A stretch of 31,025 nt of DNA from the NCBI GenBank assembly GCA_964537265.1, contig CAZHZE010000009.1, forward strand, positions 1 to 31,025, read 5' to 3'. The DNA is from an uncultured Gammaproteobacteria bacterium (GTDB lineage Bacteria; Patescibacteriota; Patescibacteriia; Patescibacteriales; GWC2-42-12). Positions 3,638 to 28,124 of this stretch are shown here, one piece after another. The stretch's first letter is position 1. Every line of letters begins with the position of its first letter. The notes under the pieces are model-generated. The model searched no databases, was not told the DNA's origin, and worked only from the letters and a program-made list of their open reading frames with translations. Position numbers and translations under genes: made by a program.

Positions 3638-4984
3638 ATGAATAATGAGCAACTTTGGCAAGCCGTTTTAGGTGAAATTGAATTAAGTTTATCTAAAGCC
3701 AACTTCACCACCTGGTTTAAAAACACTTTTATTTCTTCTATTGAAAACAGCCGGGCAATTATTTGTGTGCCAAACACTTTTACTAAGGCTTGGTTAGAAA
3801 AAAAATACCACAAAGAAATATGTGGCGCCTTTAAAAATGTTGGCTCAGCAGAAATTAAAGAAATTATTTATAAAGTTGAGGCTAAAAAAGAATTGGTTTC
3901 GGATAATTTAATAAAAAAATTTAAAAACGAAAGTGTTGTTGAAATAAAACCGAAAACTCTTAACCGCTTTGGTCTTAATAATCGATATATTTTTGAAAAT
4001 TTTATTGTGGGAAAAAATAATGAATTAGCCCATGCAGCCTGCCAGGCGGTTTCAGCCAACCCAGGCCATGCTTATAATCCTCTTTTTATTTATGGCGGGG
4101 TTGGGTTGGGAAAAACTCATCTCTTGCAAGCTATCGGCCACGAATTATCTAAAAAAACCGATAAAATTTTATATGTTTCTTCTGAAAAATTTACAAACGA
4201 CTATGTCCACGCAGTTAGAAATGGCCAAGCCAAAGAATTTAAAGATCATTATCGAAATGTTGATTTATTGCTAATTGATGATATTCATTTCATGGGCGGC
4301 AAAGATGGAACTCAAGAAGAATTCTTCCATACTTTTAACGAATTACACCAAACTAATAAACAAATAGTAATTTCTTCTGACCGACCGCCTAAAGCTATAC
4401 CGGCCTTAGAAAAAAGATTGCTTTCCCGCTTTGAATGGGGGATGATAGCCGATATAGGCTCTCCGGATTTAGAAACTAGAATAGCCATTTTAGAAACTAA
4501 ATGTCGAGAAAAAAATTATAAATTAGAAAGAGAAATTTTGGCTTACATTGCTAATAATATCACTAATAATATCCGCGAATTAGAAGGAGCTTTAAATCGC
4601 TTAATCGCTTATTACGAATTTAATAATTCTTTGCCTTCCTTAGACTCTACTAAAAGTATTTTAGCTGGCATAATCTCTAATTTTCAATCTAAATCAACTA
4701 CGCCTAAAACCATTATTGAAGCGGCGGCCAGGTTTTTTGATATTAATGTTAAAGATTTGATCGGCCAAAGCAGAAAAAAAGAATTAGTCGTGCCCAGACA
4801 AATTGTTATGTATTTAATGCGCAAAGAAATTAACGCCTCTTATCCATCTATCGGCCAAGAGTTGGGCGGACGAGACCATACTACAGCTATGCACGCATTT
4901 AATAAAATTGAACGCGAATCACAAGAGGATGAAAAAATAAAACAACACATAGATTCTATAAAACAAGTTCTTTATAGTAGTTAA
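3638..4984 (+). CDS. dnaA: chromosomal replication initiator protein DnaA
   Basis: The 448-aa product has the Walker A motif GGVGLGKTHL, Walker B LLIDDIHF and a sensor region. The C-terminal DNA-binding domain includes VPRQIVMYLMRK...HTTAMHA. Divergent from rpmH and followed by dnaN. Confidence 0.95.
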   Translation: MNNEQLWQAVLGEIELSLSKANFTTWFKNTFISSIENSRAIICVPNTFTKAWLEKKYHKEICGAFKNVGSAEIKEIIYKVEAKKELVSDNLIKKFKNESVVEIKPKTLNRFGLNNRYIFENFIVGKNNELAHAACQAVSANPGHAYNPLFIYGGVGLGKTHLLQAIGHELSKKTDKILYVSSEKFTNDYVHAVRNGQAKEFKDHYRNVDLLLIDDIHFMGGKDGTQEEFFHTFNELHQTNKQIVISSDRPPKAIPALEKRLLSRFEWGMIADIGSPDLETRIAILETKCREKNYKLEREILAYIANNITNNIRELEGALNRLIAYYEFNNSLPSLDSTKSILAGIISNFQSKSTTPKTIIEAAARFFDINVKDLIGQSRKKELVVPRQIVMYLMRKEINASYPSIGQELGGRDHTTAMHAFNKIERESQEDEKIKQHIDSIKQVLYSS

Positions 4985-5243
4985 TAAACCGGTGGAAAAA
5001 AACAAATTAACTGTTAATAATTTATTAAATTTTTTAAAACCAAAAAAATTAACCCCAACCAATTAACACATTAAACAAAAAATCCCACACCCAACACACA
5101 ACCACCAACCACAAAACAACCAACAAACACAACACATAACAAAAAATATTAACTTATTAACTCACCTTATTATTACTATTAGTTTTTAAAATATATAAAT
5201 AATTAAAAATAATTAACAACTCTTAATTTGTTAATAAAAAAAT

Positions 5244-6395
5244 ATGGCCAACCAAAATTCTAATGGATTAAAAATATTTAGTTTGCAAGAAAATTTAAAA
5301 CAAGGCTTAGCGCTGGTTAGTCATATTTCTGGTAAAAATATTAATTTACCAATATTAAATAATGTTTTAATAAAAGCAGAAGATGGAAAAATTAAATTAA
5401 TAAGCACAAATTTAGAGGTTGGGATAATAAGTTCTGTTCGCGGAAAAATTGAAAAAGAAGGTGTTTTTACGGTTAATGCTAAAATTATATCTGATTGTAT
5501 AAGCCTTTTACCAAATAAAAAAATAGGGTTAGAACAAAGCGGGACAGATTTTTTAGTAGATTGTGAAAACTATCAAGTTAAAGTAAGGGGTCAATCAGCC
5601 GAGGAATTTCCTTTAATCCCAGAGGTGGATAAAAAAAATTATTTTAGCGCGCAAGCCGAGGAAATAAAACAGGCTATCTCTCAGGTTATTTTTGCCACCG
5701 CCACTAGTGAAACAAGGTTAGAGTTGTCTGGTGTTTTATTTGTTTTTACTGCAAATTATTTAACTATGGTAGCAACAGATAGTTATCGTTTGGCAGAAAA
5801 AAAAGTAAAAATAAAATCTAATAGCGAAGAAGATAAAAAAATTATTGTACCGGCAAAAACTTTACAGGAGTTATTGAGAATTTTATCTTTAGGTTTAGGA
5901 GATGAAGTAGAAGATAAAAATCAAGAAATAAAATTTTATATTTCAGAAAATCAAATTTTATTTACTTATGGTTCGACCGAATTGGTTTCGCGATTAATTG
6001 AAGGTCAATACCCCGATTATCAACAAATTATTCCTACTAATAGTAAAACAAAAGTTTCTATTAATCAGCAGGAGTTGACTAGAGCTGTAAAAATGGCTTC
6101 TTTATTTTCTAAAACCGGAGTGAATGATGTTAATTTAGATTTTCCTGCCGGTAAAAACCAAGTGGTGATTTCTTCTGTTTCCGGACAAACCGGCGAAAAT
6201 ATAACTAATTTAGAAGCTAAAGTTTCCGGCGATGACAATGGTATGGTTATTAATTATCGTTATCTTTTAGAAGGTTTAAATAATATGGAAAAAGAAATGA
6301 TAAAAATTGATATAATAGATAGTAACACTCCTTGCTTAATTAGACCCGAACAAGATGAAAGTTATTTATATATTATCATGCCTATAAAACAATAA
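5244..6395 (+). CDS. dnaN: DNA polymerase III beta sliding clamp
   Basis: The 383-aa product lies immediately downstream of dnaA and has the three-domain clamp architecture (N-terminal LKQGLALVSHISGKNINLPILNNVLIKA; C-terminal NYRYLLEGL). Confidence 0.9.
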   Translation: MANQNSNGLKIFSLQENLKQGLALVSHISGKNINLPILNNVLIKAEDGKIKLISTNLEVGIISSVRGKIEKEGVFTVNAKIISDCISLLPNKKIGLEQSGTDFLVDCENYQVKVRGQSAEEFPLIPEVDKKNYFSAQAEEIKQAISQVIFATATSETRLELSGVLFVFTANYLTMVATDSYRLAEKKVKIKSNSEEDKKIIVPAKTLQELLRILSLGLGDEVEDKNQEIKFYISENQILFTYGSTELVSRLIEGQYPDYQQIIPTNSKTKVSINQQELTRAVKMASLFSKTGVNDVNLDFPAGKNQVVISSVSGQTGENITNLEAKVSGDDNGMVINYRYLLEGLNNMEKEMIKIDIIDSNTPCLIRPEQDESYLYIIMPIKQ

Positions 6396-14001: not shown

Positions 14002-14004
14002 CAT

Positions 14005-14031
14005 TTATTTTAGTCTACATTTTTGTAGACT
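14005..14031. repeat. 27-nt direct repeat copy 1 (ttattttagtctacatttttgtagact), itself containing a 9-bp palindrome tagtctaca/tgtagacta
   Basis: This is identical to 14083..14109 and sits immediately 3' of tRNA-Cys. Confidence 0.8.
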
Positions 14032-14048
14032 AAAAATTATATATAAGC

Positions 14049-14077
14049 TGTGGATAAAAAGTGCTAAGTGTGGATAA
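14049..14077 (+). promoter_or_regulatory. two perfect consensus DnaA boxes in direct orientation with 20-bp spacing
   Basis: tgtggataa, the reverse complement of TTATCCACA, occurs at 14049-14057 and 14069-14077. The pair is bracketed by the two copies of the 27-nt repeat. Confidence 0.6.
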
Positions 14078-14082
14078 ATTTT

Positions 14083-14109
14083 TTATTTTAGTCTACATTT
14101 TTGTAGACT
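14083..14109. repeat. 27-nt direct repeat copy 2
   Basis: Identical to 14005..14031. Confidence 0.8.
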
Positions 14110-14172
14110 TAAATACTATAAAAAATAAATAAATAGCTAATATTAGTAAATTTATTATTTTATATTACATTA

Positions 14173-14201
14173 TTGACTTTTTATATTTTTGGTGGTATAT
14201 T
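14173..14201 (+). promoter_or_regulatory. near-consensus sigma70-type promoter (TTGACT-17-TATATT) with no downstream ORF
   Basis: ttgact lies at 14173-14178, followed by a 17-nt spacer and tatatt at 14196-14201. The next plus-strand CDS starts at 14668, and a strong terminator lies at 14522-14550. Confidence 0.45.
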
Positions 14202-14521
14202 AATAATAGGACATTTATAATATTTATAGAAAAGTTTTCCGAAGTGTTTATTTGGGAAAATTTTTCTTTTTTGCTGACTTAAAGTGTCAGAGTTCACATG
14301 GCAATTTTTAAAACAAAAATAAAATAACGGTAGGTTTTCTTTGCTAAATAAAAATTAAAGGAGATTTACCAATAGTTAGCAAAAATTCGCATTTTTAAAG
14401 TGAACACTAAATGCTTCAACCTTAAAGATTAGGGATTTTCTAGACTTATTTTCGAATGGGTCTGAAATAAGTCTTTAGGGATGGGGCTCAGTTACGGCCT
14501 ATATAATTTATTATTTTATAT

Positions 14522-14550
14522 AAAAAGGGGCCCGTTCTGGGCCCTTTTTA
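14522..14550. terminator. strong bidirectional intrinsic terminator
   Basis: The sequence is aaaaa ggggccc gttct gggccc ttttt. A 6-bp all-GC stem stands out in this AT-rich DNA, with an A-run before it and a T-run after it. Confidence 0.75.
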
Positions 14551-14572
14551 TATACTTAAATTTTTATTACTC

Positions 14573-14636
14573 TTGCAAAAATGCTTATTATGACGTATAT
14601 TATAAGTGATGATTTATCCTAATCTACGGGATAAAT
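14573..14636 (+). promoter_or_regulatory. promoter TTGCAA-17-TATATT plus inverted repeat atttatcc-N9-ggataaat in the dksA-like 5' region
   Basis: ttgcaa lies at 14573-78 and tatatt at 14596-14601. The inverted repeat at 14612-14636 sits between the -10 and the ATG at 14668; its half-sites resemble half DnaA boxes (TTATCC). Confidence 0.4.
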
Positions 14637-14667
14637 TTTAGTTTAAAGCAGGTATAAGTTAAATAAT

Positions 14668-15039
14668 ATGGATAAAAAAATTGTAGCAAAAATTAAAAAA
14701 GATTTGTTGTCTAGCAAAAAGCAGTTAATGGAAGATTTAAAAAGTTTTACAAAAAAAGACGAACACGCCAAAGATGAACATCATACTGAATTTCCAAATT
14801 ATGGAGACAAGAGTGATGAAAATGTTCAAGAGATAGATGAATACACAACCAACTTAGCTAAAGAGAAAGTTTTAGAAAGCGCTTTGCGCGATATTGATAA
14901 TGCTTTGGATAGAATTACTAAAGGAACTTATGGTATTTGTAAATATTGTAAACAAGAAATAGGCGAGAAGAGGCTTATGGCTAGACCGGTGGCTAATACT
15001 TGCATTTCCTGCAAAACCAGACTACAAAAAATGTCTTAA
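14668..15039 (+). CDS. DksA/TraR-family C4 zinc-finger protein
   Basis: The 123-aa product has the C-terminal motif CKYCKQEIGEKRLMARPVANTCISC (Cx2Cx17Cx2C) and an acidic coiled-coil N-terminus. Confidence 0.75.
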   Translation: MDKKIVAKIKKDLLSSKKQLMEDLKSFTKKDEHAKDEHHTEFPNYGDKSDENVQEIDEYTTNLAKEKVLESALRDIDNALDRITKGTYGICKYCKQEIGEKRLMARPVANTCISCKTRLQKMS

Positions 15040-26689: not shown

Positions 26690-27857
26690 CTTTTTTCACC
26701 TCCGCTGTTTTATCTTCTCCTAAAGATTGGTTTGTTAAATTCATGCCAGCAGCTAACTCAGCTCCCATTATAGGTGCCTCCGCTCCTTTACTGGCGATTA
26801 TTACACCCTTATTGTTTTTTATGGCTTCAAAATAGTTTTTGTTAAGTAGATATTGAGCAGCTGCCTTAGAATCAAGACCGGTAATATCCATTACTTTTTT
26901 AATTTCCTGGCCTATTGCTTCTCCTTCTACTGCTTGTTGGATTCTCTTTGCTTCCGCTGTTTTTTTAGCCGTTTCAATAGCAATTTCTGCTGCATCTCTT
27001 TCTTTTTCAGCAATAATGATTTTATCCCTTTGTTCTCGTATTTCCGGCGGCACAGCAATGTCAGTCACGGCGATACTTTCAATTTCGACTCCCCAGACTT
27101 TGAATTTATCAGCATCAGTATCTTTCTGGGTAATGATTGCATCAGCATTAGTATCGGATTTAGTTTCAATGGCTTTATCTAATTCCATTGTTCCATAATA
27201 AGCTCTAATGCCAGAATCAGTTTTTTCTCTAATGCCTTTAAATAAATTATCAATTTCGAAAGTTGCTCTGTGAGAGCCGTAGATACGGAAGAATATTTCA
27301 GCCGTAACAGCAGAAGTGGTGTTTTTGAAATTAATTGCCGCTTCTTTTATTCCATCTCTTTCGGTGCCATCCATATATAGTCTTAAACTCTGTGTATACA
27401 TGGGCACTTTTGCTTTAATGAACATAAAGAATGGAAATTTGATATGTAGGCCTGGCTCCCATGTTGTGAACCACTTACCAAACAATAAGATAATCCACTC
27501 TTCATTTTGTTCAACCTCATTCCAGCCGTTACGTATTACTAGAATGTTTAAAGCAATTGGAATAACAAAAAGAATTAGTAATTGGAGTATCCAAGATGGC
27601 CAAATAAAGAAACTAATACCGCTTAGGATAAACCCGGTTAAAATAGTTACAACAAATAACCCAAACCATAAAACGGGCGAGATTATTGCCGCTTCTTTTT
27701 GTTTTTCCTTTTTTTCTAATAAACAGTTGGTTTTAGCATGCTCCCGCTGTTTTTCTTCCACGCGTTTTATTTCTGTTTGTTCATCTGTTGTACCCTCTCT
27801 TTTTTTTAACTTCTTTATCTTTTCCCAAAAATTTTTTAATCCTTTCATTTTCTTCAC
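26655..27857 (-). CDS. SPFH/band-7 (stomatin/prohibitin/flotillin-like) domain membrane protein
   Basis: The 400-aa product has two N-terminal TMs. Its SPFH core (WNEVEQNEEWIILLFGKW...EPGLHIKFPF...VPMYTQSLRL) is followed by a long charged helical region with an AEA/EAK-rich repeat. Confidence 0.75.
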   Translation of the reverse strand: MKKMKGLKNFWEKIKKLKKREGTTDEQTEIKRVEEKQREHAKTNCLLEKKEKQKEAAIISPVLWFGLFVVTILTGFILSGISFFIWPSWILQLLILFVIPIALNILVIRNGWNEVEQNEEWIILLFGKWFTTWEPGLHIKFPFFMFIKAKVPMYTQSLRLYMDGTERDGIKEAAINFKNTTSAVTAEIFFRIYGSHRATFEIDNLFKGIREKTDSGIRAYYGTMELDKAIETKSDTNADAIITQKDTDADKFKVWGVEIESIAVTDIAVPPEIREQRDKIIIAEKERDAAEIAIETAKKTAEAKRIQQAVEGEAIGQEIKKVMDITGLDSKAAAQYLLNKNYFEAIKNNKGVIIASKGAEAPIMGAELAAGMNLTNQSLGEDKTAEVKKDGTGKEKGKKA

Positions 27858-28124
27858 CCTTTCCTTTCATTATATTTTTATTTTATTTTTTGTTTATTTA
27901 TTCGATTGTCAAAGTGCAACAATCGAACCTTCATATTTCCCTCTTGGTTTATCTAAAAATAGACAAACCAAGAGGGAAGAAAAAGGCTCGATTTTTATTC
28001 TATTTGGCACATAAATACCAAAAGAACTAATTTATTATAATAGCATAAAATTAAAAAAAAGTCAACTATTTTATAATAATTAACTTTTTTATTGCTAAAA
28101 TTAGGTAAATATAATTAAAAAACC

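Follow-up and report, generated by a model that had tools for sequence, protein, structure and literature searches.

The intergenic region between dnaA and dnaN in the stretch of DNA analysed here (31,025 nucleotides, hereafter the window) is probably the unwinding half of a Bacillus-type (incC-like) oriC, in which a long G-free A+C tract would serve as a linker that keeps the flanking parts in register; we put the probability of this reading at about 0.6. It is the combination of distal DnaA boxes, a proximal box pair, DnaA-trios and AT-rich DNA, with a segment of fixed length and unconserved sequence between the distal and proximal boxes, that leads us to read the tract as a register-keeping linker. 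In the proposed mechanism, DnaA would bind the distal reverse boxes (4979-4987 and 5012-5020) and the proximal pair (5146-5162), oligomerize from the proximal pair onto the minus-strand trios (5167-5181), and thereby open the AT-rich stretch (5183-5228). The tract would make up the ~125 bp that separate the distal boxes from the unwinding module, and would either loop out or be covered non-specifically by the DnaA oligomer; its sequence would play no specific role, and its fixed length would hold the distal boxes in helical register with the module. The same segment in relatives carries forward boxes, TTATC[A/C]ACA, on a ~11-bp lattice, followed by a box-poor linker. In the lineage of the window these forward boxes would have decayed, and slippage together with substitution would have homogenized the segment to G-free A/C sequence.

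The spacer (4985-5243) is bounded by dnaA (3638-4984, plus strand; Pfam Bac_DnaA at 3.8e-69, Bac_DnaA_C and DnaA_N) and dnaN (5244-6395, plus strand; Pfam DNA_pol3_beta domains 1-3). The DNA-binding signature GGRDHTT is readable in the window's dnaA. The divergent genes rpmH-rnpA-yidD-yidC lie upstream of dnaA, and this gene order beside dnaA-dnaN is the classical origin neighbourhood. GC skew inside the 31 kb is weakly informative on the position of the origin. For comparison, a DnaA search (one genome per species) and a DnaN search (metagenome contigs) yielded 160 loci, to which two short contigs, L081 and L082, were added as the only matches of an exact-protein look-up with DnaN; the corresponding look-up with DnaA gave no match. 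All related loci belong to Patescibacteria, many of them labelled Candidatus Falkowbacteria or Parcubacteria group, and their DnaA proteins are 59%-93% identical to that of the window. Their dnaA-dnaN spacers measure ~205-310 nt in nearly all cases, and a few reach 382 nt. A full-text literature search found no published origin architecture for Patescibacteria.

The most conserved element of these spacers is TTATC[A/C]AC-N3-4-CTTATTATTA, a DnaA box joined through a short spacer to a trio array. Of the 73 long spacers in the first set of loci, 72 contain it, in 69 cases at a credible position (140 nt or more beyond the dnaA stop); over all loci, 126 have it at such a position, with DnaA identities as low as 59%. 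Among the 87 representative loci used for the lattice and trio profile, the box-to-trio spacer is C-rich (3 nt long in 59 loci, 4 nt in 28), and the [T/C]-T-A period is kept for 5-6 repeats, also outside the search pattern. The central T of the trios on the plus strand has a frequency of 0.83-0.99 over five repeats in the family profile, and the A+T content of the ~25 nt past the trios is mostly at least 0.85 (range 0.82-0.99).

In the window this module reads ATATTAAC-TTATTAACT-CACC-(TTA)3-CTA-TTA. Two co-oriented plus-strand boxes, ATATTAACT (5146-5154) and TTATTAACT (5154-5162), overlap by 1 nt and are followed by the 4-bp GC-rich spacer CACC (5163-5166). We note that this pair arises from an exact tandem duplication, two copies of TATTAACT across 5146-5162, and the tandem-repeat search (TRF) likewise reports an exact 8-nt duplication at 5147-5162. 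Next come five DnaA-trios (5167-5181), for which the plus strand reads TTA TTA TTA CTA TTA and the minus strand 3'-AAT AAT AAT GAT AAT-5', and then the AT-rich stretch (5183-5228), a candidate DNA unwinding element with an A/T-only run of 34 nt (5183-5216). Within this stretch, AAATAATTAA is present as an exact short tandem duplication (5197-5216). A reverse box, TGTTAATAA (5229-5237, minus strand), with no mismatch to the family motif TTAT-N-[A/C]-ACA, stands 7 nt ahead of the dnaN start codon and has its counterpart at +72/+73 in the relatives L001 and L002. The original prediction had recommended a search for DnaA-trio-like periodicity, and a trio array was indeed found, just 3' of the interval 5040-5150 and beside two boxes and the AT-rich stretch, the unwinding module beginning ~10 nt past the 3' end of that interval. 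The suggestion that the spacer is origin DNA is likewise upheld in its putative form, by the conservation of boxes, trios and AT-rich stretch across relatives.

Two further reverse boxes mark the distal side. The box AGTTAATAA (reverse complement TTATTAACT; 4979-4987, minus strand) overlaps the dnaA stop codon at lattice position -175 and has one mismatch to the family motif, with recurring reverse boxes at -176/-177 in relatives. The box TGTTAATAA (reverse complement TTATTAACA; 5012-5020, minus strand) lies at -142 with no mismatch, and a homologous reverse box is found at -143/-144 in relatives. The statement of the original prediction that there are no DnaA boxes stands for the tract itself, under strict criteria, and falls for the spacer as a whole, since boxes flank the tract on either side. 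The window's boxes diverge from the consensus TTATCCACA: TTATTAACT has three mismatches to it and one to the family motif, and ATATTAACT has four mismatches to it. In most relatives the proximal box is TTATCAACC, with two mismatches to TTATCCACA; a box within one mismatch of the family motif occupies the proximal position in 47 of the 69 first-set loci, and the proximal box anchor itself is present in nearly all relatives. Because the relaxed family motif is AT-rich and common in the genome (139 sites), box calls made from the window alone are weak, and it is conservation across relatives that backs them. For the same reason, the density of boxes along the window was uninformative as an origin locator.

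The published definition of DnaA-trios is a repeat of NAN at least three times, with consensus 3'-GAT-5', located 0-16 bp from a DnaA box; the box has at most two mismatches to the species motif or to TTATCCACA, and an optional co-oriented second box has at most four (PMC8287927). The window offers an intergenic site beside dnaA, a 4-bp spacer, five trios and AT-rich DNA beyond them. In Bacillus subtilis, the basal unwinding system of incC comprises DnaA-boxes #6/#7, DnaA-trios and AT-rich DNA (Richardson 2016/2019, Pelliciari 2021), and its experimentally defined module, taken from oligonucleotides, is 5'-TTATCCACAAATCCACA-GGCC-CTACTATTACTTCTACTA (PMC8287927 supplement). The likeness covers the location between dnaA and dnaN, two co-oriented boxes at an 8-bp offset (as in #6/#7, TTATCCACAAATCCACA), a 4-bp GC-rich spacer (CACC here, GGCC there), trios on the strand complementary to the box strand with AT-rich DNA next, and distal boxes further upstream in helical register. 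The differences from B. subtilis are that the boxes follow the variant TTATTAAC(T/A) or TTATCAAC in place of TTATCCACA, most trios are AAT and not GAT, the distal cluster consists of reverse and then forward boxes on an 11-bp lattice, and the distal-to-proximal segment of the window is a G-free A/C low-complexity tract. Experiments in B. subtilis showed that unwinding needs only boxes #6/#7 and the trios, that at least one distal box is also required at normal DnaA levels, that this distal box functions in both orientations and over many distances, subject to helical phasing, and that the 101 bp upstream of box #6 can be swapped for artificial box-free DNA if one distal box stays (PMC6669920).

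The distal arrangement in the family was mapped by anchoring the loci on the proximal box and recording all sites with at most one mismatch to TTAT-N-[A/C]-ACA. Reverse boxes recur at about -188, -176, -165, -154, -143 and -132, and forward boxes at about -118, -107, -96, -84, -74 and -63; a linker from -55 to -12 contains very few boxes, and the proximal boxes follow at -8 and 0. Both orientations obey a ~11-bp period (Rayleigh R 0.45-0.49 at 11 bp in the 87 related representatives), and the forward lattice extrapolates exactly to the -8 box (5 x 11 bp), although the related loci share ancestry and are not phylogenetically independent, so that the lattice and length statistics are overstated. 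The window retains the reverse boxes at -175 and -142, the proximal pair and the reverse box before dnaN, and has no forward box within one mismatch of the family motif between -120 and -12. A degenerate forward box, TTAACCCCA (5049-5057, plus strand; -105), with two mismatches and a score of 6.2 bits, sits where relatives have a conserved -106 box (TTATCCCCA, TTATACACA) that scores 12.5-13.8 bits in most close relatives. The A/C-only run of the window covers the relatives' -74/-63 box positions and the box-poor linker. Within that otherwise box-poor linker, a motif, TTAGCCAAAATTTAA, is conserved at -27..-13 in L083, L084, L001, L121 and other close relatives, a clade with DnaA identity of at least 84%, and is absent from the window.

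The length of this segment is constrained while its sequence is not. The dnaA stop codon and the proximal box are separated by 169 nt in the window and by 168-172 nt in 33 of the 39 loci with DnaA identity of at least 80% (exactly 170 in 19 of them); three loci measure 158-159 nt, one helical turn less. In the same loci, the distance from the proximal box to dnaN ranges from 60 to 212 nt. Ungapped identity between the window and relatives across the forward-box cluster and linker is 0.22-0.49, somewhat lowered by a 1-nt register shift, and the mean pairwise identity among ten relatives is ~0.6, so that the window has diverged much further here than the relatives have among themselves; the tract sequence is unconserved even at ~90% DnaA identity. 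These comparisons indicate that the sequence has turned over inside a length-constrained segment. Since the segment length matches that of the relatives to within 1 bp (169 versus 170±2 nt), the tract is not an expansion.

The tract itself reads as the original prediction quoted it and is larger than reported. The interval 5040-5150 contains 63 A, 37 C, 11 T and no G on the plus strand (C 33%, 111 nt), and it is part of a G-free run of 168 nt (5014-5181, plus strand; A 86, C 43, T 39) that extends from the distal box through the tract and the proximal boxes to the end of the trios. The A/C-only core comprises 53 nt (5084-5136; A 28, C 25), corresponding to -70 to -18 from the proximal box, and the second-longest A/C-only run in the window measures 17 nt. 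By our own arithmetic with the window's G frequency of 0.165, the chance of a 168-nt G-free run is ~7e-14 per start site. In 118 co-directional intergenic regions of the window and the related loci, used as controls, G-free runs reach at most 88 nt and A/C-only runs at most 15 nt, which bears out the earlier view that the strand asymmetry is not due to chance. The 168-nt run is also the longest G-free run of the window, the runners-up being 101 and 81 nt. The 101-nt run (27791-27891) is C/T-rich on the plus strand and overlaps the 5' end and upstream region of a minus-strand SPFH/Band 7 gene, whose coding strand is thus purine-rich there; this run is of another kind than the A/C tract.

A Logan contig, L081 (run SRR29243440), matches the whole dnaA-dnaN spacer of the window base for base, although it may share the window's source, and because of this identity an assembly artefact is unlikely. 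It is the only available assembly that spans the tract, and it shows no length difference from the window. The second Logan contig, L082 (SRR29243436), starts within the A/C tract at approximately window position 5119, a sign that low-complexity sequence of this sort tends to interrupt short-read assemblies.

Tests for specific content in the tract were largely negative. With a DnaA-box position weight matrix (PWM) built from 188 family boxes, the best site of the tract is the degenerate 6.2-bit box, and the tract's maximum, summed score and site count are not above mono- or dinucleotide shuffles (P 0.24-0.44). Between the score profile of the window and the family lattice there is only a weak correlation (r = 0.14, P = 0.14; for -72..-12, r = 0.16, P = 0.09). 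A DnaA-box array was rejected on these values, the lattice phase being weak and not significant. No k-mer, including CAAC and CACA, is enriched beyond composition, CCAAC/CAACC being borderline, and TRF returns only weak arrays of period 7 (71% matches), 11 (79%) and 18 (85%, 2.2 copies); a specific repeat or protein-binding array was set aside with k-mers at most marginal and TRF scores low. The proposal of a protein-binding array is not supported: neither PWM content nor k-mer counts exceed composition-matched shuffles. The idea of an unwinding or single-strand-binding element fared no better. The core is 47% C (5084-5136), and AT-rich DNA is found at 5183-5228 instead; the tract has no 3-nt periodicity (autocorrelation lag-3 z = 0.6, with a weak lag-7 signal only) and lies 5' of the boxes, not on the trio side; and its complement cannot encode trios because it consists of G and T only, while trios need a central A. 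At the RNA level, there is no Rfam match to the tract even at E = 10, and the fold is no better than that of shuffles (z = -0.95), the tract being nearly structure-free, so a structured RNA was rejected. The G/T strand as DNA folds at -2.3 kcal/mol (z = +0.25), with no hairpin predicted, and has a weak two-tetrad G-quadruplex potential as judged by eye. Neither an intrinsic terminator after dnaA nor a strong promoter was found in the spacer, where promoter-like matches are at background level.

The composition of the tract is an extreme, lineage-specific state of a feature common to the family. In the first-set alignment (69 loci), G is 0.03-0.12 and C 0.09-0.32 from about -120 to +30, and in the zone of reversed boxes, beyond about -130 on the upstream side, G equals or exceeds C; the skew reverses where box orientation reverses, at about -125. 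Over -120..0, the value of (C-G)/(C+G) is +0.46±0.21 for the family versus -0.04±0.13 in the 118 control intergenic regions. The A+C fraction over -75..-15 has a family median of 0.65 and reaches 0.97 in the window. A/C-only runs of at least 20 nt occur in 9 of 126 spacers, and G/T, A/G or C/T runs of this length in none of the 126; the next-longest A/C-only runs are those of L013/L116 (40 nt), L020 (40 nt) and L142 (30 nt). Co-oriented boxes account for part of the bias, since TTATC[A/C]ACA contains no G, but the bias persists outside recognizable boxes (G 0.11 versus C 0.23). A purely passive linker does not explain such a strand-specific bias beyond the boxes.

Two loci bear on whether the bias depends on its gene context. 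In L027 (position 3538) and L033 (position 3610), a similar box-trio-AT-rich module is found in the rpmH-dnaA spacer, and the dnaA-dnaN gap is only 30 and 6 nt, respectively; the predicted origin module has switched sides of dnaA within the family. Very short dnaA-dnaN spacers are also seen in L030 and L040. The 120 nt upstream of the module in L027 and L033 still contain more C than G (24 versus 14, and 24 versus 11), as if the skew travels with the module and not with the 3' end of dnaA. These two cases suggest that the bias belongs to the putative origin module rather than to the dnaA-dnaN transcript.

One rival reading, which we hold to be unlikely, is that the tract is a cryptic low-affinity DnaA track along which DnaA oligomerizes in register from the upstream boxes to the proximal pair; its G-free strand would then be under selection and not incidental. 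A track of this kind would explain the residual strand bias, as G depletion continues outside recognizable boxes, and the forward lattice (-118...-63), if continued, hits the -8 box exactly; within the linker, the mean PWM score of the family oscillates at ~10-12 bp (maxima at about -52, -40, -28, -19 and -8), the best sites of the window lie near lattice positions -105, -94, -73, -62 and -52, and a shift scan of window versus family has maxima ~10-11 nt apart. Arrays of low-affinity DnaA sites with 2-bp gaps, and hence an 11-bp period, lie between strong boxes in E. coli oriC, and the family resembles it in having co-oriented sites at this period, with weak or unrecognizable ones between stronger anchors. 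Unlike in E. coli, the low-affinity sites of the window are indistinguishable from composition: the shuffled controls score equally, the lattice correlation is weak, the CAAC and CACA cores are at composition level, and L020, the other extreme A/C spacer, lacks any box-like sites. The E. coli origin, moreover, is not beside dnaA and scores weakly for the unwinding module. It is quite improbable, in our estimate, that the A/C tract is a selected substitute for the forward-box cluster, a flexible linker that does not pair with itself. Neither strand of the core can self-pair, and 17 of its 52 steps are CA/TG, which are flexible steps; a tract of this kind would ease a tight ~140-bp DnaA-mediated loop from the distal boxes to the unwinding module and would keep superhelical stress from being absorbed anywhere but in the adjacent AT-rich element. 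If true, this would explain why A/C-only runs of 30-53 nt arose at the same spot in several lineages (the window, L013/L116, L020 and L142), why such runs never occur on the opposite strand, and why the two spacers with the most extreme A/C content, those of the window and L020, have lost their forward boxes; of these lineages, box scoring covered the window, L020 and L013, and L013 kept its boxes.

An RNA-level role in the dnaA-dnaN co-transcript, either as an unstructured leader or as a Rho-loading (rut) site by which transcription running on into the origin and dnaN is attenuated, strikes us as very unlikely as a whole. In composition the tract does match rut sites, with C exceeding G over at least about 70-80 nt of unstructured, untranslated sequence; like them it is C-rich and G-poor in the sense transcript for at least ~80 nt, with 33% C and 0% G over 111 nt, an essentially unstructured predicted RNA, no intrinsic terminator after dnaA, and C above G family-wide. 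The bias, unlike that of rut sites, follows box orientation and the unwinding module and not the transcript: it is anchored to the module, reverses with the boxes at about -125, and is kept when the module is located on the upstream side of dnaA, beside divergent rpmH, as in L027 and L033. With its end ~100 nt short of the dnaN start, the tract is also too distant to act as a translational enhancer. The 31-kb window contains no rho gene, and a literature search found no paper tying Rho-dependent termination to Patescibacteria, neither of which is decisive. That the tract is a neutral low-complexity expansion, produced by replication slippage and irrelevant to the origin, is highly improbable and largely refuted by the length data. 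The original prediction had raised a slippage-prone tract, and the weak repeats of period 7, 11 and 18, the lack of sequence conservation at ~90% DnaA identity and the Logan contig that breaks inside the tract are in keeping with it; the expansion is what fails, as the segment measures 169 nt against 170±2 nt in relatives while the box-to-dnaN distance varies from 60 to 212 nt, and two assemblies are of identical length. Neutral slippage should also give G/T runs as often as A/C runs, and the counts are 0 versus 9 of 126 spacers for runs of at least 20 nt. The same prediction had tied neutrality to a tract unconserved in relatives and an origin located elsewhere: the tract sequence is indeed unconserved, whereas the putative origin is here and the A+C bias is family-wide.

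A counter-point to the register-keeping linker in a dnaA-dnaN origin is that two perfect TTATCCACA boxes lie elsewhere in the window. These are found on the minus strand just after tRNA-Cys (14049-14057 and 14069-14077), 20 bp apart, and are the only perfect consensus boxes in the window. The pair is flanked by two copies of a ~24-nt hairpin-forming repeat, ttttagtctacatttttgtagact, the whole lying within 14003-14110, and may represent a promoter under DnaA control, a DnaA titration site or what is left of a mobile element; the pattern TTATCCACA-N11-TTATCCACA had no match in any related locus fetched. The adjoining ~550 nt (14110-14667) are non-coding, end in a strong GC hairpin and T-run near 14525-14555, and sit upstream of a DksA/TraR zinc-finger gene (14668-15039). 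This region is a candidate for an unannotated small RNA, for which no Rfam family came near its gathering score (best E = 0.006).

The tract does not amount to a new kind of element and is probably of minor functional importance. The comparison across the family does provide a natural experiment, in that the DNA between distal and proximal boxes can lose all recognizable boxes and become low-complexity while its length is held to ~±1-2 bp, and such box loss at fixed length agrees with the replacement experiments in B. subtilis. For the family as a whole, the putative box-trio unwinding module would be extended to Patescibacteria with the geometry seen in B. subtilis, and the arrangement described here provides a concrete, testable origin map for a Patescibacteria (Candidatus Falkowbacteria-like) lineage.
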